A DNA stretch of 56,586 nucleotides from a virus (IMGVR_UViG_3300031565_000038:1-56586); one strand, 5' to 3'; shown: positions 837-31,173, counted from the stretch's first letter. The notes: generated from the sequence alone by a model not told the origin. Made by a program: numbers and translations.

Positions 837-863
837 GCACTGGTCATATACCCAACGTTAGCA
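837..863 (+). repeat. attC-like right arm and R' box; pairs with 56442..56466 across the join
   Basis: gcactggtcatatacc is the near reverse complement of ggtatataaccaatgc (56451..56466); GTTAGCA at 857. Confidence 0.8.
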
Positions 864-869
864 GTAATG

Positions 870-1172
870 CTAAATAACCTCTAACCATGCTACTTTTTCT
901 TGTGTTAGCCAATTATGAGCAAATTTTGAAAGTGGGTAATTCTTTTCGGGTTCAGAATCACTATTTACATACAATCTTCCATGTTTACTTACAATTGTTC
1001 CTGTAATGTCTTTATCTCCACTTCTCATATATGAACGCTGATATGTTATAAATCCCTTTACTTTCATACCAACTTTCAAAATAATACCTTCTCTGTTAAT
1101 GAAAGCACTACTGCTAACAAGCGGTAATACGGCATTGCCTTGTGCTTCATGGATGATTTTTTCTGTGTTCAT
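870..1172 (-). CDS. Cassette hypothetical protein
   Basis: ORF; starts inside the attC-like loop. Confidence 0.7.
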   Translation of the reverse strand: MNTEKIIHEAQGNAVLPLVSSSAFINREGIILKVGMKVKGFITYQRSYMRSGDKDITGTIVSKHGRLYVNSDSEPEKNYPLSKFAHNWLTQEKVAWLEVI

Positions 1173-1244
1173 AATTTTGTTCTCGTATTTAAGTTATTAC
1201 TAATTTGATAGTTCGGCAACGACCGCATACCGCAGCCGTTAACT
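1112..1244 (+). repeat. attC-like site
   Basis: ctgcTAAC..cggtaatacgg / ccgcataccg..GTTaact; R'' matches cassette start gttagcagt at 857. Confidence 0.85.
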
Positions 1245-1575
1245 ACAATTGCCGCTTATGGCAATCATCTGTTAAGTATTTTCCGCATTCGCAAAATCTA
1301 TCATTTTCTTTAGACGGTGAGAAATAATGCGGCAACAGATAGTTAACAGCAGATATATTTAATGCTTGTTTTTCGTTCTCATAGAAACTTTTGTAATCAT
1401 CAACATCAAATTCAGCAAGTCCATAACAATCAATTGCTAAATCATCTACCTGTTGTTGTGTTAAACATATTGATGTTTTACCCATTAGCAACATTATACC
1501 ACCGTGTCTTGCTTGGTATATGTTGAAATCTCCTTTATAGGTTGTGTCTCCTATTTGATAGCTGAATTTTCCCAT
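1243..1575 (-). CDS. Cassette hypothetical protein (C-terminal CxC..CH)
   Basis: ORF; mostly within the attC loop. Confidence 0.7.
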   Translation of the reverse strand: MGKFSYQIGDTTYKGDFNIYQARHGGIMLLMGKTSICLTQQQVDDLAIDCYGLAEFDVDDYKSFYENEKQALNISAVNYLLPHYFSPSKENDRFCECGKYLTDDCHKRQL

Positions 1576-1631
1576 TTTATTAAAGTTTTTTGTTATTAAA
1601 TCGCACTAAATATATCTGCATCCCGTTATAG
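1341..1631 (+). repeat. attC-like site with long coding loop
   Basis: gcagatatatttaatgc / gcactaaatatatctgc arms; GTT at 1625. Confidence 0.85.
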
Positions 1632-1907
1632 TGAATTTCCCTCCCACACTACATTTGAAAATCTATCCATCCAATCTTTGGCTCTATTCATATTTTTTAT
1701 GTGCGTATTAACACGTTTTTTGGCTTCTTCAAACGTTTCACATATTACAGAACTTGGCTTAGTAAATCTACCAATCTGCATACTATTAATATTTAACCAT
1801 AAGCCAAAAATCTTATATTGTGCAGTAAAATAAGTTTCAGCAAATGGGTGCTGCCATTCTTTAATTCTATATTTAAGTTTCATATAATTTGTTTTGCCAC
1901 CGCTCAA
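1626..1907 (-). CDS. Cassette hypothetical protein
   Basis: ORF; stop codon is the TTA of the crossover. Confidence 0.7.
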   Translation of the reverse strand: MSGGKTNYMKLKYRIKEWQHPFAETYFTAQYKIFGLWLNINSMQIGRFTKPSSVICETFEEAKKRVNTHIKNMNRAKDWMDRFSNVVWEGNSL

Positions 1908-1914
1908 AAACTCA

Positions 1915-2010
1915 CTATAACAAAGTGTAAAGTTTATAAGCCAGTGAAGTTTATATTCATTTAATCAAAGTCCGTGCGTGGCTTACAAAACCTTACACAA
2001 ACCGTTAGCA
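1915..2010 (+). repeat. attC-like site
   Basis: cactaTAAC..gtgtaaagtttataagcca / tggcttacaaaaccttacac..GTTagca. Confidence 0.85.
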
Positions 2011-2016
2011 ACAACA

Positions 2017-2172
2017 CTACGTCAGTGCATTTTTCAAAGCCTGTGTTATCCAATAACGAACCATACCCGATTTATTGGAAGAGCCGAAAAACTCTTTCGA
2101 TACTTTTATCAAGTCTTGTTCTTCTTTTTCTGTAAGCGATAATGTAACCGCCTTTGTTTTTTCTTTTGCCAT
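2017..2172 (-). CDS. Small ribbon-helix-helix-like protein (51 aa, not in ORF track)
   Basis: MAKEKTKAVTLSLTEKEEQDLIKVSKEFFGSSNKSGMVRYWITQALKNALT; start overlaps the upstream stop. Confidence 0.6.
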   Translation of the reverse strand: MAKEKTKAVTLSLTEKEEQDLIKVSKEFFGSSNKSGMVRYWITQALKNALT

Positions 2173-2549
2173 TATTTTACGGTATTAATATCTACAGCTA
2201 AACCATCTTCTAACATTCCAAACACATCAAAATTATATTCAATAAGTCTTTTTACAACAACATAAGGTGCCCTATTATGCCAGTAAGCTCTTCCATATTC
2301 TAAATATTCATTATAGTAATATTCAAAGCTTGTAAAACCGAAAAAGTTATCTTTAAATACACCAATCTCACTACCAAAATCAACAGGTAATGTTTGCGTG
2401 TCTGTCAAAGGTCTTAAGATAGGTTTAAATCCTTTTTCTAAATGATAAGTTAAGTTTTCAGTTGTTAACTCTGTTTTCTTACCTACTGCATTTATAATAG
2501 ATAATGAGTGAGGCAAATAAGGTGCTACTTTTTCAAATTTAAGTTTCAT
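2172..2549 (-). CDS. Phage hypothetical protein
   Basis: ORF with PYLP..KPILRPL..FDVFG pattern; has its own promoter. Confidence 0.7.
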   Translation of the reverse strand: MKLKFEKVAPYLPHSLSIINAVGKKTELTTENLTYHLEKGFKPILRPLTDTQTLPVDFGSEIGVFKDNFFGFTSFEYYYNEYLEYGRAYWHNRAPYVVVKRLIEYNFDVFGMLEDGLAVDINTVK

Positions 2550-2586
2550 AATCGTATGTATTAAGTTTTAATGCGTTATTGCTCTA

Positions 2587-2617
2587 CAAAGATAGTAATT
2601 ATTTACTAATTACCAAA
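2587..2617 (-). promoter_or_regulatory. Bacteroidota sigma-A-type promoter inside a cassette
   Basis: TTTG-19 nt-TATCTTTG on the minus strand. Confidence 0.7.
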
Positions 2618-2646
2618 TAAATATTGCAATGATTTTACCGTGCAGT

Positions 2647-2745
2647 TGCTAACACGTTGTATATGTCAGTTTTGCCAATTGGTTTTTGTGCTTTGAATGA
2701 AGTATGTGCGTGGCAAAACCGAACACATACAACCATTCGTTATGC
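2647..2745 (+). repeat. attC-like site
   Basis: ttgcTAAC..gttgtatatgtcagttttgcca / tggcaaaaccgaacacatacaac..GTTatgc. Confidence 0.85.
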
Positions 2746-3096
2746 CCCATTAAAAAGGCGTTTAAACTTAGCTTGTATATATTTGTCCAATTCTTTCCGT
2801 AGGGCTTTCTTGTCAATACCCTTAGTGTTATAAAATCGAAAAATAATTGAGTTTCTTACTTTACCATCTTTTAAGTAGCAAGTGTCCATTCCTATTTCCC
2901 AATTGCAATCTGTAAATTGTACAATTATTTTCTTACAGTGTGCTTTTAACGAACCATTGTATGCTTCTTCATAGTAAGCCCTACTTTCTCGCTGGTTAAT
3001 AAGTAAGTCCTGCTCTTTTGCAGTCATTGTCTCTACATTTATTCCTATAATTGTCTGCATATCGTTAATTAACAACGGGGCATAACAACGCATCAT
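2740..3096 (-). CDS. Cassette hypothetical protein
   Basis: ORF; stop at crossover. Confidence 0.7.
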   Translation of the reverse strand: MMRCYAPLLINDMQTIIGINVETMTAKEQDLLINQRESRAYYEEAYNGSLKAHCKKIIVQFTDCNWEIGMDTCYLKDGKVRNSIIFRFYNTKGIDKKALRKELDKYIQAKFKRLFNGA

Positions 3097-3207
3097 AAAT
3101 AATAGCGGTGTTGTGCTTATCCGTAGGTTTATAATATTAATTTACTGCTTCTCATCTTTATAATTTAGTGCGGTTAATCCGCTACTATTCATATGCCAAC
3201 GTTACCA
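3080..3207 (+). repeat. attC-like site
   Basis: ggcaTAAC..gcatcataaataatagcgg / ccgctactattcatatgc..GTTacca. Confidence 0.85.
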
Positions 3208-3212
3208 CCCAT

Positions 3213-3497
3213 TTAAAGAAATTGCGGTGTAGGTATATCAAATCGCTTTTCTCGTGGCTCGCTATCATCGTAGTCACACTCTTTTAGTTTTGGTAAGTTA
3301 GGGTGCATTCCATCGTGTTTAATATGTTTATTGTATCGCTCGCAAATATGTGGGTACTTTTTACCATCTTCCACCTTGTCTTGTTCTCGCTCGGTTATGC
3401 TTAAATATTTGCATTTTCGGAAGCAAAAAACGGGTGGTAACAAAGGCTCATATTGCATAGCCTTGTCAGTTGTCGAAGTTTCATTCTTTTTTGTCAT
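3213..3497 (-). CDS. Cassette Cys-rich hypothetical protein
   Basis: ORF; start in attC loop. Confidence 0.7.
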   Translation of the reverse strand: MTKKNETSTTDKAMQYEPLLPPVFCFRKCKYLSITEREQDKVEDGKKYPHICERYNKHIKHDGMHPNLPKLKECDYDDSEPREKRFDIPTPQFL

Positions 3498-3564
3498 TTC
3501 AGTAAGTATTTAAAGTTTATATATTCAATCTAAAAGGCTACGCAACATAGCCAAACCGTTAGCA
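3435..3564 (+). repeat. attC-like site
   Basis: gtggTAAC..ggctcatattgcatagcc / ggctacgcaacatagcc..GTTagca. Confidence 0.85.
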
Positions 3565-3565
3565 C

Positions 3566-3736
3566 TTATTTACCTCGCTGTACGCTCGGTTTTTTCTTTC
3601 CCTTTAATTTTTTTATCCTTCTTCTTATATCCTTATCATCATACCAATCAATAATAACTGGCATTATCACAACCATAATGGCTATGAATACGTATGCCCC
3701 TATAATTACATATACTAAATTATCTTTGTTCATCAT
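3566..3736 (-). CDS. Small single-pass membrane protein (56 aa, not in ORF track)
   Basis: MMNKDNLVYVIIGAYVFIAIMVVIMPVIIDWYDD followed by a basic tail. Confidence 0.6.
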   Translation of the reverse strand: MMNKDNLVYVIIGAYVFIAIMVVIMPVIIDWYDDKDIRRRIKKLKGKKKPSVQRGK

Positions 3737-3842
3737 GTCAATATTTTTTTAAAAATTAAATGTTTCAATAAAAACCAATAAGTGCTAACGTCCTCTGTCT
3801 CGTTTCGCTGTAATTACCGCTCGGTAAACCCACTTCGTTAAG

Positions 3843-4135
3843 TGCTAACATAGTGTATAATGAATGACTTAGGCGAAACTCGTAATGAGGTTCTTGTTCT
3901 CAGTATTTAAAAGAAAATAAAATCTTTATTCCTTTTTTTCATACAAGCGGTGCAAATACTTTCGTCTTTTTTAACAATATATTTACCAGTTTCAACATTC
4001 CTAAATCCAGAATATCTAATATCTGCCTCAACACCGCAATCGGTACAATAATATTTTTTCTCTTTATTATCATTCATTATATTTTCTTTTAAATCCTTTC
4101 ACAATTCAACTCATTATACACAGAGGACGTTACCA
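3843..4135 (+). repeat. attC-like site with a gene in its loop
   Basis: gtgcTAAC..gtgtataatga / tcattatacac..GTTacca. Confidence 0.8.
3907..4077 (-). CDS. Small zinc-finger protein (56 aa, not in ORF track)
   Basis: MNDNKEKKYYCTDC...ICTACMKK; two CxxC pairs. Confidence 0.6.
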   Translation of the reverse strand: MNDNKEKKYYCTDCGVEADIRYSGFRNVETGKYIVKKDESICTACMKKRNKDFIFF

Positions 4136-4200
4136 ACAATTTGCCAGTAAAAAAGTGCATAAAACGAAACGTAAGTACTGGCAAACTGTACGCTTCGCTT

Positions 4201-4642
4201 TGGTAACAACTTGTATATTCTATGCGCTGTGCATAGAATCAGCGGATTCCTCCCCTATTGTCATTTCTTCTTTACAGTCTTTAAGCATATTTATAAAACT
4301 ATCTATACTTTCAACTTTGTTAAAAACAAAAACAAGTTCAGGTTGCATTTCATCAAAGCTTTCAACACTTGCTTTTTCAATAACGTTTATCGGTCTTGGT
4401 TCAGTTACTGTTTTCATAGCGAGTACTGTTTCGCCGTTTTCGCCTTTTTCAGATCCTAGCATCCAAACATCGCCAGTTCCCATTTCACAAACCATTACAT
4501 TTTTTGTTTTTCCGTAAGTTGCATTTTTTGTTATCATCTTGTTTTTGTTTTTGCCTACACACCGTATGCGAGCGGTTATACATTTATTTTAGTTTCGTGC
4601 GATCCGGTAAAGCGCACATAACATACAATTCGATCGTTAGCG
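4201..4642 (+). repeat. attC-like site enclosing a whole ORF
   Basis: tggTAAC..ttgtatattctatgcgct / agcgcacataacatacaa..GTTagcg. Confidence 0.75.
4220..4537 (-). CDS. Hypothetical protein in attC loop
   Basis: ORF. Confidence 0.7.
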   Translation of the reverse strand: MITKNATYGKTKNVMVCEMGTGDVWMLGSEKGENGETVLAMKTVTEPRPINVIEKASVESFDEMQPELVFVFNKVESIDSFINMLKDCKEEMTIGEESADSMHSA

Positions 4643-4861
4643 GTAATAAGTCACAGTATAATCTGTACCTTCTACTGCTAAATCACATCCTATTATTACT
4701 TTAGGTGGCTCAAATAATGGTGTGTGTTCTGGCATCTTAATATCACCATTTTCAAAGTGTTTTTGCATTTGTGCTATGCGGTTTAATTTACTACCGCTAA
4801 CAACAGGTAAATTGCATTGCTGCTTTCTACCATTAAATAAGTTTTTTATAAATTTCAACAT
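4637..4861 (-). CDS. Cassette hypothetical protein
   Basis: ORF; stop at crossover. Confidence 0.65.
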   Translation of the reverse strand: MLKFIKNLFNGRKQQCNLPVVSGSKLNRIAQMQKHFENGDIKMPEHTPLFEPPKVIIGCDLAVEGTDYTVTYYR

Positions 4862-4922
4862 CTGTTCTATTTTTTAAGTTTTTACTAAATTCACGCAACG
4901 CAACTTACCCAAACCGTTATCG
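4795..4922 (+). repeat. attC-like site
   Basis: cgcTAAC..ggtaaattgcattgc / gcaacgcaacttacc..GTTatcg. Confidence 0.85.
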
Positions 4923-4946
4923 ACAATGCCGCTGCGCTTGACGAAG

Positions 4947-5198
4947 TCAATCAGTTTGTTTAATCAAATACATCTTAAAACACTTACTACACCATTTATT
5001 ACCATAAACGTCCTCGCTATCAGATTGTGTACAATCACAAACCTCCTTTGACTTCTCATTGTCGATAACGTTCTCACTTTCATTTGTTGCTTGAGAATTA
5101 ATCTGAATGAAATTTATTGCTCTTACTTCATCAGATCGCATATTATCTACTCCTGGTAATCTTAAATACTTTTGGAATTCAATTAATTCTTTCTTCAT
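4947..5198 (-). CDS. Cassette hypothetical protein (C-terminal CxC..CxxC)
   Basis: ORF. Confidence 0.65.
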   Translation of the reverse strand: MKKELIEFQKYLRLPGVDNMRSDEVRAINFIQINSQATNESENVIDNEKSKEVCDCTQSDSEDVYGNKWCSKCFKMYLIKQTD

Positions 5199-5237
5199 TG
5201 TTTCAATTTTAAATTTGTACTACGCTTGCGACACAGT

Positions 5238-5322
5238 CGATAACACACTGTATATCGAAAGCAACTAAATGAATGACTTTCCGCAACTGCGTTGCTCACG
5301 TCATACAGTGAGAACGTTATGT
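5238..5322 (+). repeat. attC-like site
   Basis: cgaTAAC..cactgtat / atacagtg..GTTatgt. Confidence 0.8.
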
Positions 5323-5640
5323 GGCATTTAAGATATGATACTCGTTCGGAGTAAAATTCCATGCCACCGCACCATCTTTAAATTTGAGTTTGGCGCAATC
5401 AATATCTCTATCTCTGTAATGTTTTCCATTGTCATCATACTCACAATATCCAGTTTCTACAACCGTTGCAAGTTTTCCTTTATGCCTGTACAAATTATAC
5501 CTTGTGCAAACTGTTTGCCCAACCCTCGCACGAATTTTGTTTCTACCTATGAACCACCTGAAAGCGGATAAGTAAAAACGCCACATAACAATGTATATAG
5601 CAAATTTGCGAGCTTTTAAGAAAGTTTTTACTGTATTCAT
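5317..5640 (-). CDS. Cassette hypothetical protein
   Basis: ORF; start in loop, stop at crossover. Confidence 0.7.
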   Translation of the reverse strand: MNTVKTFLKARKFAIYIVMWRFYLSAFRWFIGRNKIRARVGQTVCTRYNLYRHKGKLATVVETGYCEYDDNGKHYRDRDIDCAKLKFKDGAVAWNFTPNEYHILNAT

Positions 5641-5708
5641 AATTTATCTCATTTAATTAAGTTTCTACTAATTTGGATGGCAAACTTGCCATATTCTCAA
5701 CGTTGTGT
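5583..5708 (+). repeat. attC-like site
   Basis: acaTAAC..atatagcaaatttgc / gcaaacttgccatat..GTTgtgt. Confidence 0.85.
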
Positions 5709-5852
5709 GTAATTTAAAGAACCCGTAGGCTTATTTTAGCACGTGCCTACGGGAGCTCGTCCGTGCATCCATTTTGTTGTTGTAGCAGGTAATTCGTCAA
5801 TTATCGCTATTTCTGGGAATGTGATTTTAAACCCAATATCTTAATAAACTAC

Positions 5853-5982
5853 ACACAACAATTTATATAATTAATAGCTGTGGTAGTGGTTATTTTAAAG
5901 AACTATCATTTATTAAGCCTATGCAAATATATGAAAATTATAGCATTTAATACGCTACTAATCATATAAGTAGCCGTTGTAG
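5853..5982 (+). repeat. attC-like site with a promoter motif in its loop
   Basis: acaCAAC..ttatataattaatagc / gctactaatcatataa..GTTgtag; TATATTTG (minus) at 5924..5931. Confidence 0.8.
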
Positions 5983-5992
5983 GCAATTTTGC

Positions 5993-6241
5993 TTAGTAAG
6001 TGCATTGCCCACCACATTTTCTACATTCACCTGTACCTGCTATCAAATCTTGCACACCATCGCATTCGCAAAACTGTTCGCTTTGCCCTACAACATTAGC
6101 TATACCCAATAATTTTAACTTAGCTTGGTGGTATGCTTCAAGGGCTTTCTCCGTATCGTTTACATCTGTTTGGAATTGTGGTGAATATTGCGTTGGCATA
6201 TTCGGTATTCCGTGTTCATCTAAAAATTCTTTTGCTGTCAT
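5993..6241 (-). CDS. Cassette hypothetical protein (C-terminal zinc ribbon)
   Basis: ORF; CxC..CxxC. Confidence 0.65.
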   Translation of the reverse strand: MTAKEFLDEHGIPNMPTQYSPQFQTDVNDTEKALEAYHQAKLKLLGIANVVGQSEQFCECDGVQDLIAGTGECRKCGGQCTY

Positions 6242-6293
6242 TTTTTCGTTTTTAAGTCGTTAAAATTACTGTACATAGCCTTAGCCGTTGTAC
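6088..6293 (+). repeat. attC-like site
   Basis: ctaCAAC..gctatacccaataattttaac / gttaaaattactgtacatagc..GTTgtac. Confidence 0.8.
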
Positions 6294-6402
6294 TCAATAT
6301 TGCCCCTTAAATCCGTACTCTTTAAGAACATCAGCGAGTAACTTTGATTTTTCTTCTGGGATTGGTCCCCACCGCACTTTGGTTTTTGCAAAACCATTTG
6401 GG

Positions 6403-6489
6403 TTAAGAGCAATGCCCTGTACTACCTCCACAATGTCCCGCCATTGCTTCAATAAAGTTTGCAACTTTTCTCAAAACTTTCGTGTACAT
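6403..6489 (-). CDS. Putative RiPP precursor peptide (28 aa, not in ORF track)
   Basis: MYTKVLRKVANFIEAMAGHCGGSTGHCS; ATG 4 nt after the rSAM stop. Confidence 0.7.
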   Translation of the reverse strand: MYTKVLRKVANFIEAMAGHCGGSTGHCS

Positions 6490-6493
6490 AATT

Positions 6494-7363
6494 TTACCTC
6501 CATTGTTTAGTTAAACATCCATTTTCATATATAACACCGTATTTATTTGGTGCTGTTTTGTTAAATAATTTATAAGCAACTTTTACACCGTCCATAAATG
6601 AAGCTGTTAGCGTTTCCTCACACATAAAACACGAGCGTTTTAAAAGTAGTGGCGTTTTCATTTCTTTTAGCTCCTGTATTTTTGCAGTTTCTAAATACTT
6701 TTGACAACCACTATAAAAAGGTGTCCCTAGTTTAATACCAAAGGTTTTTTCAAACGAAACAAAGTATTCTTTTCCGTGTTGTATTTCGGAAAGTTTAATC
6801 GAATCAAATCCCATTTTATCGTAATGCAATAAACAGGCTGTAATATCTTCTTTCGTGTACAGATAAGGTTTCACAATATTTAGGTTAATTCTAATCTTTT
6901 CTTTATGTGGCAACGAAGCATAAAAAGCCTGTCTATCATATTTTGAAGGTACTTTCCTTATTTCGTCTGCAATTTCTTCTTTATAATGTTGTACCGAAAG
7001 GTTTATGCCGTCAATTATTTCTAAAAGTTCGGTAAACAAATCAAACCTATCACTACATATTTTTGGTATTGCAGTTGTTACAAATATTTTGAGTTTTGTT
7101 TTTTCTCTAACTTGTTTTACACAGTCCAAGAGTTCCTGTAAATAAAGGCAAGGTTCACCACCTAAAAACAATACATCATCGTATCCGTTTTGGTTTTCAA
7201 CTATGGTGTTTACTATCGCTTGTACATCGGGTTTCTTTATTCCAAAACCTTCATACTTTAAATCAATGCAATGCGAACACTTATTATCACAAGCACTTGT
7301 AAAATGTATGTCAAATGAGTTATACAACCCATCACAACAGTTTTTAATAAAAATATTTGCCAT
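6494..7363 (-). CDS. Radical SAM protein (putative peptide maturase)
   Basis: CDNKCSHC (CX3CX2C) and GGEP motifs. Confidence 0.9.
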   Translation of the reverse strand: MANIFIKNCCDGLYNSFDIHFTSACDNKCSHCIDLKYEGFGIKKPDVQAIVNTIVENQNGYDDVLFLGGEPCLYLQELLDCVKQVREKTKLKIFVTTAIPKICSDRFDLFTELLEIIDGINLSVQHYKEEIADEIRKVPSKYDRQAFYASLPHKEKIRINLNIVKPYLYTKEDITACLLHYDKMGFDSIKLSEIQHGKEYFVSFEKTFGIKLGTPFYSGCQKYLETAKIQELKEMKTPLLLKRSCFMCEETLTASFMDGVKVAYKLFNKTAPNKYGVIYENGCLTKQWR

Positions 7364-7428
7364 CGCTTCGCTGTTTTTAATTACTATTTTAGTTTTTCAA
7401 TTTAAGTTTATCAGTTAAAACCGCCAGC

Positions 7429-7557
7429 CACTAACACGTGGTATAAAACAAAGCGGTTTTAGTGGTACTCGAAGTTGTCTGCCACGTGCCAAGTTTATTG
7501 TAACTTGATAATTCAGTCCTCGCAGTCCGCTTCGATTTCATACCACCATCGTTAACG
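7429..7557 (+). repeat. attC-like site
   Basis: cacTAAC..gtggtataaaacaaagcgg / ccgcttcgatttcataccac..GTTaacg. Confidence 0.8.
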
Positions 7558-7590
7558 AAAATGTTGCAAGCAACCGCAAAAAACGAGTTG

Positions 7591-7803
7591 TTAATACCAG
7601 TAATCACAGTTACCATGTTCGCAAGCATTAAGAGTACAGTTACCATTTGGTTCATCCGAATGACAACTCTTTTCTTTTTGCTCATTTTCGTTAACGTTTC
7701 GAGCTTCTCTTTGATGCTTTAAAATTTTTCTAATCTTACGTAGTTCAATTGAAGTAACTATAAATAGTATTCCAGCTAAACAGTTAATAATAATTTGTGT
7801 CAT
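7591..7803 (-). CDS. Cassette protein with N-terminal TM helix and Cys-rich tail
   Basis: ORF. Confidence 0.6.
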   Translation of the reverse strand: MTQIIINCLAGILFIVTSIELRKIRKILKHQREARNVNENEQKEKSCHSDEPNGNCTLNACEHGNCDYWY

Positions 7804-7864
7804 AATAAAAAATTTTATTTGTTAATACTTATTTAATTTCTTTTTCCTGATCTTGCAACACTTT

Positions 7865-7953
7865 CGCTAACAAAGCGTATAGTGAAAGCATCAAATCGAA
7901 TGGTTCTCCGCAACGCTTCGCATTGCTCTCACCATACGCTCGAAACGTTATAA
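7865..7953 (+). repeat. attC-like site
   Basis: cgcTAAC..agcgtatagtga / tcaccatacgct..GTTataa. Confidence 0.8.
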
Positions 7954-8193
7954 AACAGTTTGCGAAGGAAAGTATTGGCATTTTTCGCATTCTTGATTAT
8001 CAAATGGGCATCCAAGTATATCGAATTGCGGATGATCGCAAACCGATTTTATAACAGCAGGTATAACACAGTTTTTTGCTGCGTATTCTGCCATTAAGTT
8101 AGCTACTGCATTTAATGTAAAGTTGGTTCCAGTTCCGTACCCTTCATTATCCAAGTACTGTTTTGCATTTTCAATGTCTTCTTTTGTGTACAT
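7948..8193 (-). CDS. Cassette hypothetical protein
   Basis: ORF; stop at crossover. Confidence 0.65.
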   Translation of the reverse strand: MYTKEDIENAKQYLDNEGYGTGTNFTLNAVANLMAEYAAKNCVIPAVIKSVCDHPQFDILGCPFDNQECEKCQYFPSQTVL

Positions 8194-8255
8194 TTTATTT
8201 AAGTTTTAGTTATTAATCCGCAAAAAACCGATGTCATACCTGCGTTCCGTTATAG
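8049..8255 (+). repeat. attC-like site
   Basis: ttaTAAC..gcaggtataaca / tgtcatacctgc..GTTatag. Confidence 0.85.
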
Positions 8256-8624
8256 GGCATTTAAAAACTCGCCCCTCCACATCTTTTTAATTAATTTATC
8301 GTTTACTTGTTTTACCTCATATTTTCGCATCAAAGGGAATCTTTCACTTGCCGAAAGTGATTGCCACCAATCTTTCCATTCGTTTTTAAAAATAACGCTT
8401 GGAATGTAATCTTGCTCATAATCACAATTAAGGCACTTTAAAATAACCTTACCATTTACCTCATTGCCTACAAGTGGCAAATGTTGGCTATCATTTCCAC
8501 AAGTTAATTCGTGCCAATTATCATTATGTTGGAAAATTGCTATTTTGCTTAATATTTCTTTATTGTTCATAATCTCATTTATTTTGATTTGTTGGTATGC
8601 GTAGTTTCGTGCTTTCAAATGCAA
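8250..8624 (-). CDS. Cassette hypothetical protein (likely start 8570)
   Basis: ORF; stop at crossover; left attC arm not found. Confidence 0.65.
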   Translation of the reverse strand: MHLKARNYAYQQIKINEIMNNKEILSKIAIFQHNDNWHELTCGNDSQHLPLVGNEVNGKVILKCLNCDYEQDYIPSVIFKNEWKDWWQSLSASERFPLMRKYEVKQVNDKLIKKMWRGEFLNAL

Positions 8625-8645
8625 CCGACCACATATACTTTTTCG

Positions 8646-9392
8646 TTAACGGCAAGCAAAAGAAGCGTCCGTGCGTTCAAATTCGTACACAAAAACCCAA
8701 GGATTAGAATTGAGATTATCAAATCCGTTAATTTTTGCCCATAATGAACGATAAGAAGCAATTGCCGGATGAACACCACCTGTTTGCAAATGGCTTCCAT
8801 CATCCCAAAATCCTACCATTGGTTCAACATACGATTTATAGCGGGTTTGGCACATTTGTTGCCATTTTTCGATACCTTCTGCAATTGCATCTTCCTTTGT
8901 AATATCTTCGAGCCGTTCAATTCTAATTTTTGTAAGTATCAAGAAAATACGGCAAGCATTTTTAGTCATAAATATTGAAGGTTTCCAAGTCCAATGTTCG
9001 TAATCCTCCCACGGTTGCCCATCAGCTTTATAAACATATCCGTAGTTTTCATCAGTTGGGTGTAAGTTCAATACTTTTGTATGTTGCCATGTTTCACGCA
9101 CCCAAAGTATGTCACCTACTTTGTATTTCATTTTAAACAATGAGCCTCCATATTGTCCGTTTTCGTGAACTCCTCTAACTTCAAATTGGTCTTTATCTGT
9201 AAATGCAGAGAATCCAATTTTAGGGTCTGTTATTTTTTTTGAGTATTTAACTATCCGTCTGGTTTGTGTCTTTTCTCCTCTCAATATCGCCTGAACCATT
9301 GGAGTTGAGAAAAGAATAGGTTTACAATTGCCAGCCGTTAACACGCCATATACTCCATTGGCGTGTTCGTTGGTATTCGTAGTTTCTGTCAT
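8646..9392 (-). CDS. ASCH/PUA-like phage protein
   Basis: PILFSTPMVQAILRGEKTQTRR, GDILWVRETW, WKPSIFM and NPWVFVYEF motifs. Confidence 0.8.
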   Translation of the reverse strand: MTETTNTNEHANGVYGVLTAGNCKPILFSTPMVQAILRGEKTQTRRIVKYSKKITDPKIGFSAFTDKDQFEVRGVHENGQYGGSLFKMKYKVGDILWVRETWQHTKVLNLHPTDENYGYVYKADGQPWEDYEHWTWKPSIFMTKNACRIFLILTKIRIERLEDITKEDAIAEGIEKWQQMCQTRYKSYVEPMVGFWDDGSHLQTGGVHPAIASYRSLWAKINGFDNLNSNPWVFVYEFERTDASFACR

Positions 9393-9466
9393 TTTATAAA
9401 GTTTTTAGTAAATTGATAAATTTGTTCGTTCTAATCGCCAACGTAAGCATATGGCAACCGTTATCT
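9336..9466 (+). repeat. attC-like site
   Basis: cgtTAAC..gccatatactccattggcg / cgccaacgtaagcatatggc..GTTatct. Confidence 0.85.
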
Positions 9467-9471
9467 TCCAT

Positions 9472-9852
9472 TTAAGGAAGACTAATCACATTAAGTATTG
9501 CAGGTATCCAATTCGCAGTAATTCCTTTTTTATTATTTATCGAGTATGTGAGCAAAGTTCCGCAGCTTATAAATGTCGAATGCTTAATAAAAGTAGGTGA
9601 AAAAGGAATTTCGCTTGGGGTTTCCTTTTCGCAAATATCTGGTCGTAAATCTAACAGGTGTTTAACTCTATCCCATTCTTTTTGTGTTTTGACAATATAG
9701 CATTCATTAAAATCTAATGAGCGAAAAACGGAAGATAACAAAGGCTCATATTGCATAGCCTTGTTTTCTGGTAAATTACTCATGTTAAATGTTGCTACAC
9801 TTTTGCCATGTTCATATGCTTTTAGGTATTCTTTCTTTGTTAAATCGCTCAT
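9472..9852 (-). CDS. Cassette hypothetical protein
   Basis: ORF; shares KAMQYEPLL with 3213..3497. Confidence 0.65.
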   Translation of the reverse strand: MSDLTKKEYLKAYEHGKSVATFNMSNLPENKAMQYEPLLSSVFRSLDFNECYIVKTQKEWDRVKHLLDLRPDICEKETPSEIPFSPTFIKHSTFISCGTLLTYSINNKKGITANWIPAILNVISLP

Positions 9853-9933
9853 TACTTAGTATTTTTTAAGGTTATTACTTTCTATTTATTTTGGTGGGTA
9901 ATTCACGCACTACCCATACGTACACCGTTAGGT
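9733..9933 (+). repeat. Chimeric attC-like site
   Basis: Left arm identical to 3438..3466; right arm not complementary; GTT at 9927. Confidence 0.7.
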
Positions 9934-10188
9934 GGCATTTAAAGAAATGTACTTGGTATCTATTTCAAGTTGCTGTATTTCAGTTAAGCCATTACCTTTT
10001 GCTCTGTTTTTATTGAACTTCAAGCAATCATAACACACCTTTACTTCATTTACCGTTAAGGCTATTTTGTTATCGTTAGAACAAACGCCACATAACAATG
10101 TGTCAACAATAATTACTGGCTTTTCCGGTATGTCAAATAATTTTTTTTGTATAATCATTACATTAATTTTGAAAGGTTTATATCTCAA
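9928..10188 (-). CDS. Cassette hypothetical protein
   Basis: ORF; two CxxC; stop at crossover. Confidence 0.6.
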   Translation of the reverse strand: MRYKPFKINVMIIQKKLFDIPEKPVIIVDTLLCGVCSNDNKIALTVNEVKVCYDCLKFNKNRAKGNGLTEIQQLEIDTKYISLNAT

Positions 10189-10221
10189 ATTCCGTAACTA
10201 TTGTTACACTATCCGTTAGCA
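10090..10221 (+). repeat. attC-like site
   Basis: acaTAAC..gtgtcaacaataattac / gtaactattgttacac..GTTagca. Confidence 0.85.
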
Positions 10222-10222
10222 C

Positions 10223-10507
10223 TTAAACGAGCGTCCCAGTTACATCAGCTTCAATTTTGAAAATTGCTTGTATTCTATTTTTTGAACCATCTTTTTCGCA
10301 TTCTGAAACAAACGATTCTAATTCAATATCTGAATTAATACCATAAGCTCCGTTTAAATCTAAATCACCATCGGTAATTACAATATACTTTGTATTTTCT
10401 CTCACCGAATTATCTCTAAATTTACACCCATTGTATTCCATTTTGATAAAAATTAACTGGCTATAACACACAATAAAAAATATATAGGCGTTTGTACTAT
10501 TATTCAA
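10223..10507 (-). CDS. Cassette hypothetical protein (likely start 10441)
   Basis: ORF. Confidence 0.6.
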   Translation of the reverse strand: MNNSTNAYIFFIVCYSQLIFIKMEYNGCKFRDNSVRENTKYIVITDGDLDLNGAYGINSDIELESFVSECEKDGSKNRIQAIFKIEADVTGTLV

Positions 10508-10664
10508 GGTTTGTGCCCCTCTTTGGCTTTTTTAAAGCCATTAGGTATTCACTACATATAAACTCAATCATTCCGCTAAAACTGCGTCTTTGTTTTGTAG
10601 CTTCTTTCTTAATCTCAGCGTTTATTTCGCTATCAATCGTTAAACTTTCTCTGTCCTTTGCCAT
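10500..10664 (-). CDS. Ribbon-helix-helix (CopG/Arc-like) regulator (54 aa, not in ORF track)
   Basis: MAKDRESLTIDSEINAEIKKEATKQRRSFSGMIEFICSEYL. Confidence 0.65.
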   Translation of the reverse strand: MAKDRESLTIDSEINAEIKKEATKQRRSFSGMIEFICSEYLMALKKPKRGTNLE

Positions 10665-10683
10665 AATTTTTTATATAAAAAAA

Positions 10684-11026
10684 GGGTTACCGATGCAGCC
10701 CTGTACAAAACATTGAGTTGGTCAATTAATACTCTTAGAAACTTTTACCAGGGGTTTAAAAGAACTTTGCTTTTTACATTTTAATCTTTAAAGCGTAAGA
10801 ACTTTTAATTTTAACCTTTTTGCTTTTAACTTTCAGCGTTAAACTTTTCAAGTTTTTGCAGTCTTATGCTCTAACCATCTGAGCTAATTCCCCGACTTTC
10901 GTCTGGCGGAGAATACTGGAATCGAACCAGCGACACTAAGAACCCATTGCATGTTAGTTTAGCAAACCGGTGCTTTTCTAACCCTCAAGCAGGGAATTGA
11001 ATTTATGTTTTTCGCATCGGTATTCC
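10684..11026 (-). ncRNA. Candidate structured ncRNA (about 340 nt)
   Basis: 9-bp closing stem (11014..11022 with 10688..10696) followed by a U-tract; embedded tRNA halves; 7-nt periodic A-rich tract; no long ORF. Confidence 0.65.
10855..10943 (-). tRNA. Circularly permuted tRNA-like element (3' half + CCA, GAC-GAAA-GUC linker, 5' half)
   Basis: 3' half UCUUA-GUGUC-GCUGG UUCGAUU CCAGU-AUUCUCC-G-CCA precedes 5' half GGGGAAU-UA-GCUC AGAUGGUUA GAGC-A-UAAGA-CUGCAAA; acceptor and anticodon stems pair between the halves. Confidence 0.75.
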
Positions 11027-11040
11027 TTTATTAGTTTTAA

Positions 11041-11709
11041 TTAAATTTCAATTACTGTTATTGCGTTAATTTCAGAAAGAACAGCGTCAACTTCTGTCTC
11101 AAATTCATTTACTTCATTTTGCAAATTCTCTGTAAGTTCTTCAACTTTCAAAGGGTCAACTAAATGAAATTCCTTACGCTTCACAAACGGCTCAACAATG
11201 TTTTTAACATCTTCATCGTTAGGTTTTACCCTATCATCACCTTGTTTGCCAATCATAATTTTAGCGTTCTCTAAAGCAACATTGTTTACTTTCTCATTTT
11301 CCTGAGTAAATTTTGCTTTTACTGCGTTGTGCTTTTGACTCAACCTTGCGATAAGGTTTTTCTTAACAGCTATTACAGTTTTAAAATTAATTGCATCTGC
11401 AATAGTCATTGTTTTTCCTCCAATTTTAACAATGGTCGTTCCGTTTGCTTTTACAATAGCTGATTTAATAGAGTTTTTACGCTCAATCAAATCTGAAACT
11501 GATTGAAACTTAGCCTTTACATCTTTCTCGAAATCATCTTTTGCGTAAAAACCATTAACAGGCTTATTCAATTGCATTAAACCAGTTGGCTCAACTACAT
11601 TAATAGCTTTTTCAATTCTTGCATCAATCAGTTTTAGTTCCGACAATGCTCGGTGAATAGTCATTTTTGTCTTTTCCATAATATTTAAAACTTTAAATGT
11701 TAAGTGCAA
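11041..11709 (-). CDS. Coiled-coil protein resembling DUF6847/DIP1984-type proteins (likely start 11679)
   Basis: MTIHRALSELK..., MTIADAI and C-terminal VDAVLSEINAITVIEI; family assignment from memory of the pattern. Confidence 0.6.
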   Translation of the reverse strand: MHLTFKVLNIMEKTKMTIHRALSELKLIDARIEKAINVVEPTGLMQLNKPVNGFYAKDDFEKDVKAKFQSVSDLIERKNSIKSAIVKANGTTIVKIGGKTMTIADAINFKTVIAVKKNLIARLSQKHNAVKAKFTQENEKVNNVALENAKIMIGKQGDDRVKPNDEDVKNIVEPFVKRKEFHLVDPLKVEELTENLQNEVNEFETEVDAVLSEINAITVIEI

Positions 11710-11736
11710 ATATATAGTATTATTTTATATTGTCAA
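11707..11736 (-). promoter_or_regulatory. Promoter
   Basis: TTGACA...TATATTTG. Confidence 0.7.
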
Positions 11737-11853
11737 GTATTATTAAGTATTTTTTTCAACAATATTTTTCCAACGCTCAAAATATTTTAACATTTATAAT
11801 CCTAATTAAATTCTGTGGTAACTTGATAAAAGCAACCGTATCATATTTAAACG

Positions 11854-12075
11854 TTATAACCCATTTTTACTTTTGTACAGTTCAATCAGTTCTGCAAAAG
11901 ATATTACAGGTACTCCAAAATCTCCTTCTTCTGCAAACCCATGTACTTCAATAAATTTTGTTGCTTCAATCACTTCTATTTTTGCTTCTTTAACAAGCCA
12001 TATCCAAAATGGGGTTATAACACTACCTATATGTAATGCCTTTCCGTTTTTATCAAATATTTCTAAGTTATCCAT
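11854..12075 (-). CDS. Cassette hypothetical protein
   Basis: ORF; start in loop, stop at crossover. Confidence 0.65.
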   Translation of the reverse strand: MDNLEIFDKNGKALHIGSVITPFWIWLVKEAKIEVIEATKFIEVHGFAEEGDFGVPVISFAELIELYKSKNGL

Positions 12076-12153
12076 TGTTTAAGTTTTTTAAGTTAGTATA
12101 GTAATTTATTTAAGTCGGCGCTACACATAGACAAACCGTTAGCAAACATTTGA

Positions 12154-18003: not shown

Positions 18004-18579
18004 TCATTTTACCTTAAAATTTTTTTCCTTTGCCAGTTCCTTGCATTTTTCCTTATAAGTTTCAATGATTTCTATAAGCGAAACCCTGTCCCATTTGAAA
18101 GATATCCTTTTGTAATGATCGGCAATAAAACGAAGCCTGTCCATTCTTTCCTGACCTATTTTTTCAACAAGTTTTTTTCCGTATTCTATGGCGTTTGAGT
18201 GTTTGTAATAATTATCGCCCTTGGACTGCAAGTTAACGTTGTCCTCATTGAATTTCAACTCGCTTACAGTAGATGGGTAATAATGCCCGGCATGGCAGTT
18301 TGGGTGTCCATATTTTAATGGTTTTCCAGAACTTATACAAAACCCATTGCCATTTTCGTCAGTATCACGAAGCCTGATGAATTTATTGAACCATTTTTGT
18401 GCTGTTCCCTTAAGTTGGTCAATGTTTTTATCACTGTATTTTTGTATTTTTTTTGAGTCCATGATTCTAATTTTTTGGTTGTTTATGTTGCGTATATTTG
18501 AAAGTTGTATGCAATTAAAAAGCGATACCACCGCAATCTTCACAACAACTATGTCCGTCATTAGGCTTTTGTTTTTCAC
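18004..18579 (-). CDS. ninG: NinG/Rap-family recombination endonuclease (likely start 18462)
   Basis: FNKFIRLRD, CISSG, HAGHY and FNEDNVNLQ motifs. Confidence 0.85.
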   Translation of the reverse strand: MKNKSLMTDIVVVKIAVVSLFNCIQLSNIRNINNQKIRIMDSKKIQKYSDKNIDQLKGTAQKWFNKFIRLRDTDENGNGFCISSGKPLKYGHPNCHAGHYYPSTVSELKFNEDNVNLQSKGDNYYKHSNAIEYGKKLVEKIGQERMDRLRFIADHYKRISFKWDRVSLIEIIETYKEKCKELAKEKNFKVK

Positions 18580-18784
18580 ACATAAGGCATTTAGAATCGC
18601 TTTTTAACGGCTCTCTTCGCCATACAACATTAAATATAAATAGTAAAAATTTACTACGTTTTGCGCTTCTTTCAATATCTCTGCATAGTCTCAACCAAGC
18701 TATGTTCAGTTCCATACATGCGCCTTGTAGTGTTTCTAATCTCATTAGTAGCCTTTGCTGTAAATTGTAATATGGTCTTTTCAT
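18515..18784 (-). CDS. Cassette hypothetical protein
   Basis: ORF; start in loop. Confidence 0.65.
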   Translation of the reverse strand: MKRPYYNLQQRLLMRLETLQGACMELNIAWLRLCRDIERSAKRSKFLLFIFNVVWRREPLKSDSKCLMCEKQKPNDGHSCCEDCGGIAF

Positions 18785-18836
18785 GTCCGTAAATTTTTAC
18801 TATTCATATTATTCCCGTTACAGGCAATAAAAATTA

Positions 18837-19034
18837 CTACTCTTTCTGTTTTAATTCAAGCAGTTCTTTTTCAAGTGTTTCTATTATTTGTTTAACCTCG
18901 TAACTTATCTGCTCCATCATACTACCTTCACCTTCATAATAGGTGAAGTTATGTTTAGTTTTTGGGTGATATAGTTTGCGTATAGCATTTAATGCTGTTG
19001 CTTTTTTATATTGTTTTAATTCCTCTGTTGTCAT
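18837..19034 (-). CDS. Cassette hypothetical protein
   Basis: ORF. Confidence 0.65.
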   Translation of the reverse strand: MTTEELKQYKKATALNAIRKLYHPKTKHNFTYYEGEGSMMEQISYEVKQIIETLEKELLELKQKE

Positions 19035-19156
19035 AACCGTAATTTTAAAAGCCTATAACAATTTGTAAAAATAATAGCCAATATAGGCGTTTGTACTATT
19101 ATTCAAGGTTTGTGGTTTGGCTACTATTCTTACAAGTTAACATTAGCCTTCATTGA

Positions 19157-19441
19157 TTAACACACCGTCTGCACCTCGCCTTTTCTCCATGACACAGCTC
19201 TTTTAAATGCAGAGTCTCGTAGCGATTTTAAAGAAAGTTTATCTATTAATTCTTTAGCTTGCAATTCACTTATAGTTACTTTTATTTTTATAATTGGAGA
19301 ATCTTTACGCAAATAGCGTATTAATCTATATTTATCTCCGTATTGGGAAATCAACCATAAGTGATTCCATTCTGATATAAGATTGTCAATATTAACAAGA
19401 CAATTACCAGTTTCTTTAAAATCTTCAATAATTTTTTTCAT
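19157..19441 (-). CDS. Cassette hypothetical protein
   Basis: ORF. Confidence 0.65.
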   Translation of the reverse strand: MKKIIEDFKETGNCLVNIDNLISEWNHLWLISQYGDKYRLIRYLRKDSPIIKIKVTISELQAKELIDKLSLKSLRDSAFKRAVSWRKGEVQTVC

Positions 19442-19480
19442 ATGTTTTTAAATTTTTTCGTTATTCAAAATCTTCCATGC

Positions 19481-19822
19481 TCATCCGTCTTTTTCCGTTC
19501 TTATCTCTCTCGAATACTCCAAAATCGGCTCGTTAAACACATATCCAATCAATCTTGCTCGATAACCTTTATCCAATAAATCACGTATTGGTATTGCGGT
19601 CCCATAGCTAATATATATTTTATTTACAGCTTTTTTGTTTACAGTTACTATTCCAAACTTGGCAATTATTCCGAAATAAATAATTCGCCAAAATCCATAT
19701 ATCACTAACCATTTTAATTTGAATTTCTCACCGTGCAGAGAGAAAAAACGAGGCATGGCAATAGATAAAATCCATTGCTTAAACTGTGATAATTTTGAAA
19801 TTATATGTTTTCTTATTTTCAT
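19481..19822 (-). CDS. Cassette hypothetical protein
   Basis: ORF; start in a degenerate loop. Confidence 0.6.
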   Translation of the reverse strand: MKIRKHIISKLSQFKQWILSIAMPRFFSLHGEKFKLKWLVIYGFWRIIYFGIIAKFGIVTVNKKAVNKIYISYGTAIPIRDLLDKGYRARLIGYVFNEPILEYSREIRTEKDG

Positions 19823-19878
19823 TTTACTAAGTTTTTGAAATTATAACTATTAAATAGCAACGTATCTTATCAGGGCTG

Positions 19879-20328
19879 TTATATAAAATTAGCAATCGTT
19901 TTTTCAAAATCCTCCATGCTTATCCAGTGCAGAATATGTTTGAGCATGGCATCAATGCACATACTGTATATCCTTGAAAATTCCACATCGTCCATCGACT
20001 TGAAGGATATAGAACGAGCTTGTAAATGTTCTTTTCCTGTCATATCGTAAATAACATCAGCTTCTCCTATCATTATCATTAGTTTTTTTCTAAGGTAATT
20101 GACATTCCTCAACCTGTCATATTCCTCTTCTTCAGGGAAAAGATATATGCATGCGTTCAGGAATGCAAAAAACTTTCTGTGAAAATCAACATTCCTTTCT
20201 TTCCATATATCAATATTGAGACAATCCCCATCATTTAATTTCAGGCTTTTTTTAAAACCGTCAAATTCAACGAAATCAACAGAATCACGGAAAGCGTCAA
20301 TATTTTTTATGGTGCATTTTAGTTCCAT
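19879..20328 (-). CDS. DUF1367-like protein
   Basis: RNVDFHRKFFAFL and SISFKSMD motifs. Confidence 0.75.
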   Translation of the reverse strand: MELKCTIKNIDAFRDSVDFVEFDGFKKSLKLNDGDCLNIDIWKERNVDFHRKFFAFLNACIYLFPEEEEYDRLRNVNYLRKKLMIMIGEADVIYDMTGKEHLQARSISFKSMDDVEFSRIYSMCIDAMLKHILHWISMEDFEKTIANFI

Positions 20329-20420
20329 TTTTCAAAATGATAAACACAACAAAAACGCAATAATAAACCCTATGAGCATATAGCGAATAATATGCAATAT
20401 AAAAAGATATTCAACTTTTC

Positions 20421-20792
20421 TCATTTTGCTTTGATTTCATTTAAAACCCACTTGCATCCCAATGTTTCAGCCATAAGATTGATTTCATACAGCGTCAAAT
20501 CCCCGTCATCAAAGATATGAACTGTTTGTTTTTTTCTGATCTTCTGCATTTTAAATTCACATCCCAAAATCTCAGCTATCAGTTTCATCTCGGAATACCT
20601 AAAATCCCTTTTGTTTTTCTCGAAAAGACAAATATCCTTGTCCCTTATGTTTTCAGGGAGTTTTTCCGCAAGTTCTTTTTGGGTCATGCCTTTTTTTAGC
20701 CGCTGCTCTTTTACGAGTTCGTATATGGTTTTCATATGGTATTTTTCCGCCACGGATTTTACTGTTTTTTTAAACTTTTTTAGTGATGTCAT
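20421..20792 (-). CDS. XRE-family HTH regulator
   Basis: RLKKGMTQKELAEKL..IAEILG. Confidence 0.8.
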   Translation of the reverse strand: MTSLKKFKKTVKSVAEKYHMKTIYELVKEQRLKKGMTQKELAEKLPENIRDKDICLFEKNKRDFRYSEMKLIAEILGCEFKMQKIRKKQTVHIFDDGDLTLYEINLMAETLGCKWVLNEIKAK

Positions 20793-20821
20793 ATATTTGT
20801 TTTAAGTTAATTATATTTTGG

Positions 20822-21037
20822 TTATATTCCGCAAATTCGTTTTTTAGATCGTACTTCATCTTTTGTATAATTATTTATAATTTCAAGTTTCCAACCTTTC
20901 TTTACAACACCATCGCCTTCCAATTCAATTTTAATTTCACGTTCCAAAATTGATCGAATTATTTCGCCAACATCATCACCATGCCCATCATAACCGCCTT
21001 CATCATCAAATTTAAATTTCAATATTACTTCTTTCAT
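20822..21037 (-). CDS. Hypothetical protein
   Basis: ORF. Confidence 0.55.
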   Translation of the reverse strand: MKEVILKFKFDDEGGYDGHGDDVGEIIRSILEREIKIELEGDGVVKKGWKLEIINNYTKDEVRSKKRICGI

Positions 21038-21076
21038 CTCTTTTATTTAAAAAAACATAATTGCAAAGTCAACATT

Positions 21077-21748: not shown

Positions 21749-21760
21749 TTTTATTGTTTT

Positions 21761-30959: not shown

Positions 30960-31123
30960 ATATCTATTTATTTATAAAACGGGTACTCTGTAAAGTTTTC
31001 CCCTTCCCTTTTTTATTTAGTCTTTCAATTTACAAATATACAAAAAAAGGGGCAAAGCCACAATAATATATCATAACTGTAAATAATAGCAAAAACTGTA
31101 ATTATCTGCAAGCAAACTATCTT

Positions 31124-31165: not shown

Positions 31166-31173
31166 GTATTATT

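Follow-up and report, generated by a model that had tools for sequence, protein, structure and literature searches.

Exact inverted copies of the circle junction in three phage gene cassettes: a candidate second arm of attC-like hairpin sites

The viral record IMGVR_UViG_3300031565_000038 (positions 1-56586, all of which was analysed and is hereafter called the window) is complete at 56,586 bases and derives from a tailed phage. All real genes of this phage are located on the minus strand. An exact direct repeat of 126 nucleotides (nt) is present at the termini (2-127 and 56461-56586), which reflects either circular closure of the assembly or genuine repeats of the termini. The encoded proteins include a portal, a packaging protein, a DnaB-like helicase, a RecE-like exonuclease, NinB and NinG/Rap. 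The portal is distantly related to the portals of Polaribacter and Bacteroides phages, and the host range points to Bacteroidota. The genome contains an array of about 30 small genes that are set apart by a single family of sites, consisting of TAAC|G followed by a hairpin. Most of the small genes between approximately 857 and 12,138 terminate, on the coding strand, in a conserved element with the order TTAAATG, some five variable bases, TAAC|G, seven to eight variable bases, (G)TATG and a GC-rich motif. Here we describe three cassettes of this array, named A, B and C, each of which contains an exact 22-nt inverted copy of its own circle junction, i.e. of the sequence formed when the two ends of the cassette are joined.

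Positions 3777-3798 are the exact reverse complement of 4120-4129 joined to 3559-3570 (cassette A), positions 5057-5078 of 5307-5316 joined to 4917-4928 (cassette B) and positions 7683-7704 of 7938-7947 joined to 7552-7563 (cassette C). Each copy covers 10 nt from the end of its cassette and 12 nt from the beginning, and the next base mismatches on both sides. The matches are exact and bounded on both sides, as a preliminary description of this DNA had stated, and its claim that the matched sequence is present only in the circularised cassette is supported as well, with a tandemly repeated cassette as the other option. The whole window contains 42 inverted cores (coding-strand CGTTA). A two-sided match to site halves (9 nt + core + 8 nt) was found in three of these, in each case to the left half of the nearest downstream site and the right half of the nearest upstream site, and the other 39 match over at most 7 nt on one side. 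When junctions were used as 11+11 probes, the inverted circle junction was the sole probe with a copy genome-wide (21/22). No direct-orientation copy of the junction was found genome-wide, the best scores (17-18/22) being the sites themselves, and the donor joint, i.e. the empty site, has no copy in either orientation (direct 17-18/22, inverted 15/22, which is background). The 22-mer matches are thereby confirmed as real and not due to chance. A guide of the TnpB type, directed at the donor joint, was also considered and was ruled out since the empty-site joint has no copy. All sites involved have the same core (TAACG, five bases; ATAACG, six bases, in B). Since this core is shared, the crossover can be placed only somewhere inside these 5-6 nt and not exactly at G|TT, for which the copies had been taken as independent support. 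Two of the copies had been described as lying in coding sequence. Taken literally this holds for B and C, but the open reading frames concerned (ORFs; 4947-5198 and 7591-7803) match only themselves in a protein database of 5.8 billion sequences. The features of the three cassettes are collected in Table 1, where a and b are the left and right halves of a site.

Table 1. Coordinates of the array, the three cassettes and their arms and sites in the window.
Feature	Position	Strand	Description
Array of attC-like sites	857..12138	-	TAAC|G + hairpin of ~115-130 nt between small genes; contains cassettes A, B and C
Cassette A	3559..4129	-	ORFs 3907-4077 (zinc-ribbon-like) and 3566-3736 (membrane-like)
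A, upstream site, core TAAC|G + right half b	4120..4132	-	5' arm pairing with 3786-3798; inverted repeat, fold
A, canonical proximal imperfect 3' arm	3839..3849	-	11 nt complementary to own 3' end; 0 nt across crossover; offset +279
A, distal perfect arm	3777..3798	-	Between two small ORFs, ~40 nt upstream of the start of ORF 3566-3736
A, downstream site, left half a + core	3557..3570	-	Pairs with 3777-3790; 14-nt inverted repeat, 100%
Cassette B	4917..5316	-	Single orphan ORF 4947-5198
B, upstream site, core + right half	5307..5320	-	14-nt inverted repeat, 100%
B, canonical proximal 3' arm	5228..5244	-	R box of 9 nt, asymmetric loop, L box; offset +71; 0 nt across crossover
B, distal perfect arm	5057..5078	-	Inside orphan ORF 4947-5198
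B, downstream site, left half + core	4915..4928	-	14-nt inverted repeat, 100%
Cassette C	7552..7947	-	Single orphan ORF 7591-7803; paralog of B
C, upstream site, core + right half	7938..7950	-	Two-half inverted-match detector
C, canonical proximal 3' arm	7852..7871	-	Pairs with cassette end, 20 nt, 90%
C, distal perfect arm	7683..7704	-	Inside orphan ORF 7591-7803
C, downstream site, left half + core	7550..7563	-	14-nt inverted repeat, 100%

The site family was defined by patterns, and the resulting collections include false sites. A strict motif has 28 occurrences on the minus strand and five on the plus strand of the window, versus 5.5 ± 2.4 in 50 shuffles. One-strand arrays of the same type are found in many IMG/VR contigs of 31-93 kb, from phages that have almost no proteins in common with the window phage, and the specific hairpin signature was also identified in five short contigs of Bacteroidota metagenome-assembled genomes (MAGs). 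The region had no blastn match in 50,697 phage records, the ORF of cassette B used as query retrieved no relatives, and a tblastn search of the cassette ORFs against the collected array loci gave almost no matches.

Ordinary cassettes contain an internal arm, composed of ATAC, a few bases and GTTA plus six further bases, which can pair with the 10 nt that end the same cassette. In related phages, complementary runs of at least 8 nt were found for 195 of 615 true partners versus 277 of 11,595 non-partner controls. The true fraction of paired partners is above 195/615, because the 615 were obtained with a relaxed pattern that includes false sites. Pairing of at least 8 nt with the own cassette end was replicated for 189 arms in 47 further loci. 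In the window, this canonical arm is found in nearly every cassette of the array. Canonical arms are mostly located +82 to +120 nt from the cut, often already within the N-terminal codons, and their pairing halts at the crossover. A position-wise pairing profile was made for 91 arms chosen by context alone. Arm positions 1-3 (GTT) are paired in 91/91 and positions 1-9 are Watson-Crick in 91-100%. Position 11 is Watson-Crick in 0/91, with G opposite T in 70 arms and a mismatch in 21, after which positions 12-14 pair again (approximately 80%) and pairing is random from position 16. The coding strand is considered the folding strand because of the G-opposite-T positions. Judged by these sequence features, the site is an attC-like hairpin of about 115-130 nt, the outer box of which would be completed only by the far end of the cassette, i.e. 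in the circle. The attC-like hairpin system proposed before is thus supported. Complementarity to the own junction, in contrast, is less special than had been thought, since ordinary cassettes complement their own 3' end over 10 nt; what sets the 22-mers apart is that perfect pairing continues past the crossover. In cassettes A, B and C a canonical proximal arm is accompanied by a distal, uninterrupted complement of a, core and b. In the canonical arm of C the two non-matching positions (5 and 11) are both G opposite T, as read by eye.

Two further observations concern canonical arms in the array. Translation extends into the 3' half of the hairpin at 3422-3466 and 9720-9764, and two different cassette proteins have the N-terminal peptide KAMQYEPLL in common; it is encoded by a 45-nt repeat, 91% identical, which includes the canonical arm. 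The stretch 5702-5976 is an apparently ORF-less cassette of 274 nt, with a canonical arm (10 nt, G-T, four more pairs) that matches its own end.

The distal perfect arm is not confined to the window. A core-independent detector that requires both arms to be at least 11 nt was used; a 9+9-nt version was replaced as too noisy (460 hits versus 178 in a shuffle). In the first set it yielded 29 hits versus 3-6 loose shuffle hits per 1.2 Mb and in the second set 21 hits versus four in the shuffle, where in neither set the shuffle hits were sorted by core or topology. Hits without the AACG core were left out, 23 in the first set, most of which are AT-rich, and 18 in the second set, as was contig L248, which has an 11-nt gap that corresponds to a local hairpin. 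L119, with arms of 5+6 nt, was treated as chance. Distal perfect arms amount to eight cases in six separate contigs, the three in the window and five in other phage contigs, which have the three-part topology too: L067 (24 nt, split 13+11), L098 (23 nt, 11+12), L118 (25 nt, 13+12), L159 (25 nt, 11+14) and L169 (29 nt, 14+15). No such arm was detected in Polaribacter phage P12002L, in a 23-site phage of 93 kb or in what remains of two other records.

Arm lengths are sharply bimodal. In the first sample 195 of 202 arms have 8-11 nt, two have 14-15 nt and five have 22-25 nt; in the independent second sample 188 of 189 have 8-11 nt and a single arm has 25 nt. The distal perfect arm is a discrete class that makes up roughly 1-3% of arms. 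The fixed length of 22 nt with a 10+12 register therefore holds for A, B and C, to which the 10+12 split is confined, but not elsewhere, where the five cases have 23-29 nt and other splits. Surveyed over the cassettes of related phages, the length turns out discrete rather than broad, but the register varies between phages. In addition, A, B and C, which have length and register in common, look like paralogs. B and C are clearly paralogous by their homologous hairpins and the homologous flanks around the copy, and A has part of the B/C loop. The copies of B and C differ at 7 of 22 positions (hand count), and because each copy exactly complements its own termini all seven differences are mirrored there. 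Mismatch-tolerant scoring gave 21-22/22 for true partners in six cases and otherwise no score above the control maximum of 17 (1,487 controls); four scores of 18-19 are the same arms matched to the wrong partner site. No decayed copies, i.e. intermediate mismatch scores, were found among the true partners. As read by eye, all eight perfect copies are Watson-Crick through position 11 and all eight are located 3' of a canonical-looking arm. The end of the copy coincides with the start of the local inner hairpin in all six cases that were laid out.

When folded as single-stranded DNA, the junction arm engages the distal copy in 6/6 cases, in the array and in the circle alike. When the copy is barred from pairing, 10.1-14.0 kcal/mol is lost in the array and 18.0-24.5 kcal/mol in the circle, which fits the earlier suggestion of a competing arm. 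The canonical fold then returns, with an asymmetric loop between the R and L boxes, and cassette B uses its canonical arm (Table 1). In the array context one half of the copy lies opposite the upstream site's right half and the other opposite the downstream site's left half, with 13-14 bp each and the core in common. These boundaries are exactly the two that must react for excision of that cassette. In the circle context A, B and C form an uninterrupted 22-bp helix with the crossover in the middle. The perfect copies are without the unpaired features that every ordinary arm keeps.

Comparison of contigs provides signs of cassette movement. The hairpins are where phages are homologous to one another, and this homology ends at TAAC|G. 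In one relative 5704 is followed directly by 6294, the missing stretch being exactly that between sites 5702 and 6287. The hairpins of B and C are found in another sample in other surroundings, where homology stops approximately 3-4 nt beyond the crossovers. Contigs of the source run match the region without differences. In samples X2 and X3, contigs carry 22 other letters in place of the 183-nt stretch 4066-4248, which contains the upstream site of cassette A and a GTTACCAA...TTGGTAAC hairpin; in these relatives the gene at 4220-4537 therefore adjoins the zinc-ribbon ORF with no site between. The array also contains a radical-SAM gene (6494-7363) with homologs of 65-79% identity in phage contigs of up to 286 kb. 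These contigs are unrelated and mostly much larger, and each has the strict motif only 0-3 times; transfer of this gene between unrelated phages seems to have taken a route other than the site family.

An enzyme that would act on the sites was sought by profile searches. PF00589 (tyrosine recombinase) had zero matches in the complete genome versus matches in 14/14 control genomes, and PF01797 (Y1 HUH transposase, TnpA) had zero matches versus matches in 6/14 control genomes. A scan of 38 distinct window proteins revealed no IntI, invertase or other site-specific recombinase, and no recombinase was found among the proteins common to array-bearing phages or on the five Bacteroidota MAG contigs. 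The recombinase is probably encoded by the host and not by the phage. Elsewhere in the window, at 18004-22390, there is a lambda-like recombination set of NinG/Rap, NinB/Orf and the RecE-like exonuclease, adjoined by a possible annealase gene at 21077-21748.

How might the copies function? On the coding (minus) strand each cassette begins with TAA|C-G-b and finishes with a-TAA. At an ordinary site the imperfect proximal arm pairs with a, forming the R box, and then, past the asymmetric loop, with the region after b, forming the L box. In A, B and C the additional exact complement of a, core and b can out-compete the canonical arm and hold both boundaries, and may act as a conformational switch by which the cassette's own two boundaries are sequestered. 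The reading we favour, tentatively and with somewhat less than even confidence, is that the 22-mers represent an additional 3' arm, located distally, of a single-strand hairpin site that resembles integron attC, and that this arm is maintained as such a switch. The switch might be a lock that blocks the canonical fold and fixes the cassette in place, or a splint that aligns the two ends for joining. We slightly prefer the lock, because the copy abolishes the unpaired features kept by all ordinary arms.

A number of points weigh against a maintained switch. The recombinase was not found in the phage. The signs of movement derive from assembled contigs, none of which shows a circle, an excision or an effect of the copy. 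The paralogy of A with B and C consists of a short common loop motif seen by eye. The position of the copy with respect to genes is variable, before the ORF in L067, L098 and L118, after it in L159, between two ORFs in A and L169 and inside the ORF in B and C, and no single gene-level logic is therefore visible. A lock would be strongest in the circle, with 22 bp, which is awkward given that the cassette must have integrated. Last, approximately 195 bp over the eight cases are all Watson-Crick with zero G-T pairs, though ordinary arms tolerate G-T. This looks more like templated copying or a requirement for identity than like selection on a fold and therefore keeps two rivals alive, in which the copy is an inverted partner site or a by-product that is copied anew. 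Fold-back copying, a site for inversion and a small-RNA guide had already been put forward as the origin or role of the copies; each may apply, but none gained direct support.

In the first of these rivals, which we consider unlikely, the copy is a third, inverted, double-stranded site. The cassette would then consist of two adjacent invertible segments, bounded by repeats of core + b and a + core, and inversion would flip parts of genes or promoters. Invertons of Bacteroidota consist of short perfect inverted repeats around flippable segments, some of which are inside genes. Several features agree with this: both segments are bounded by perfect inverted repeats of 13-19 nt with a common crossover core, the segments measure 83-342 nt, in line with inverton sizes, some are in genes, the sequence identity without G-T goes beyond what mere pairing requires, the copy divides the ORF in two in B and C, and the likely host phylum is the same. 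However, neither an invertase or other site-specific recombinase in the phage nor a recombinase adjacent to the repeats was found, and no orientation variant was seen: for the four runs compared no strand-switch joints were listed, at the level of contigs, which are blind to minority isomers. Translated by hand, flipping the downstream segment of B yields just an 11-residue tail. A double-strand tyrosine recombinase requires matching overlap regions, for which at most one of the two site pairs qualifies. Inversion also does not account for the exact correspondence between the repeats and the two halves of the circle junction, with one central site.

The second rival is given a similar, low probability. 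Here the copy is a functionless by-product, an opposite-strand patch of the junction that arose by fold-back priming or template switching during cassette formation or circle replication and is kept matched by re-copying or gene conversion. An exact reverse complement with sharp ends is what DNA synthesis is expected to leave, the copy disregards rules of functional arms such as the mispair at position 11, it is rare, and its location 3' of a canonical-looking arm in 8/8 cases would also suit this origin. A mere by-product is difficult to reconcile with B and C, the copies of which are seven positions apart yet perfect at both termini, with the lack of decayed copies, and with recurrence in six or more hairpin subfamilies that are unrelated to one another but in which the copy has identical boundaries with respect to the hairpin. 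Moreover, the arrangement could not be derived from a single reciprocal recombination or a simple fold-back, and a reciprocal exchange cannot duplicate sequence. Other routes were worked through on paper, namely one or two inversions, inverted integration of the other strand, dimer circles and fold-back priming from the 3' end, and none yields an exact copy of both halves, so that they were rejected as sufficient explanations.

The least likely reading, to which we give little credence, is an element at the RNA level, in which an antisense or guide sequence of about 22 nt in the mRNA pairs with the upstream leader and the 3' end, thereby controlling processing, stability or translation. All parts are indeed on the transcribed strand, the conserved G opposite T of ordinary arms would be a G-U pair in RNA and the length is near two helical turns. 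The reading is ranked low because the placement of the copies varies and G-U is absent from them: their position with respect to start and stop codons is inconsistent and their lengths range over 22-29 nt. Furthermore, the full target exists only on a circular or tandem template. Rfam at gathering thresholds gave zero matches, and the only sub-threshold match of note, which resembles YrlA (Y RNA-like), is outside the copies. It is located at 10837-10961 (33.4 bits, E = 4e-4, gathering score 69) within a 376-nt intergenic region (10665-11040, minus strand), in which ARAGORN detected zero tRNA. Chance or an assembly artefact can practically be dismissed, given eight exact cases in six separate contigs, the excess of real hits over shuffles in both sets and the unchanged region in contigs of the source run.

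The attC sites of integrons are located downstream of a promoterless ORF, measure approximately 57-141 nt and recombine as bottom strand, antisense to the ORF. The sites described here resemble them in size, as judged by the offsets of the canonical arms, in the imperfect hairpin with AAC/GTT at its base and the crossover in one arm, and in an R box that is completed by the cassette's own other end, such that full pairing occurs in the circle only. Analogous unpaired features are found in position 11 and the asymmetric loop between R and L boxes, the equivalence of which to extrahelical bases is putative and which the perfect copies lack. Unlike in integrons, the hairpin is upstream of the ORF or overlaps its start and the coding strand appears to fold, and in the R box a barcode of 5-6 nt, specific to each cassette, is combined with a position 11 that is obligatorily non-Watson-Crick. 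As in phage clusters of attC sites without integrase (CALINs), most of the small and diverse cassettes are orphan and no integrase was found in the phage. A complete integron has an IntI tyrosine recombinase and an attI site next to its array; IntI was not found here, and the array fits the integrase-less CALIN category only.

CALINs have been reported in virulent phages, with 2-3 sites each (PMC9892861), as compared to about 30 sites per phage here. With its arrays of about 30 sites, the barcode and the obligatory non-Watson-Crick position, the phage site family appears to exceed the clusters of 2-3 sites published. That paper also describes recombination of an attC of Polaribacter phage P12002L by IntI1 (PMC9892861). 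In P12002L, at about 30952-32692, members of the site family flank a small gene between two methyltransferase genes, and one canonical arm at 31120 matches the end of its cassette by 10 paired nt, a G-T and six more pairs. These members lie in the region of the IntI1-recombined attC and are candidates for identity with that attC.

Two other systems show partial resemblance. IS200/IS605 elements transpose as single strand and their cleavage sites are recognised by internal guide bases, 4 nt in length. Like these, the sites here are strand-specific, have a conserved tetranucleotide at the foot of the hairpin and appear to involve a circular junction intermediate and pairing that picks the joined ends. 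They differ in that no match to the Y1 transposase was found, in Watson-Crick pairing over 10-29 nt versus 4-nt guides and in the organisation of gene cassettes in tandem arrays. The promoter-stem-loop (PeSL) cassettes of T4-type phages shuffle by homologous recombination between repeats. Both systems have repeated intergenic stem-loops around small, variable phage genes at the boundaries of mosaics, but a cassette-specific complement of the own far end is not known from PeSL cassettes. In the literature, as covered by listings and the openings of abstracts, which is weak evidence of absence, no description of a perfect distal arm or junction copy was found.

How integron-type cassettes are created, addressed and stabilised is still an open question. 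In a few cassettes the pairing partner is written twice, as an imperfect functional arm and as a perfect copy that spans the crossover. Being discrete and recurrent and varying together with both cassette ends, the perfect copy provides a direct experimental handle on the control of excision, integration and inversion by folding. The attC-like arrays of Bacteroidota phages also appear far larger and more widespread than published, being common to unrelated phages. A bolder reading, which we regard as rather improbable in its full extent, is that base-pairing addresses choose which sites recombine, with a short barcode in every cassette that complements its own far end, and that the copies of 22-29 nt are full-length cis-acting DNA splints or locks, paired simultaneously with both boundaries of their cassette and re-templated with each circle cycle, in a system that operates without phage integrase across unrelated Bacteroidota phages. 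If true, the splint or lock would represent nucleic-acid-guided exchange of cassettes without a phage-encoded integrase.

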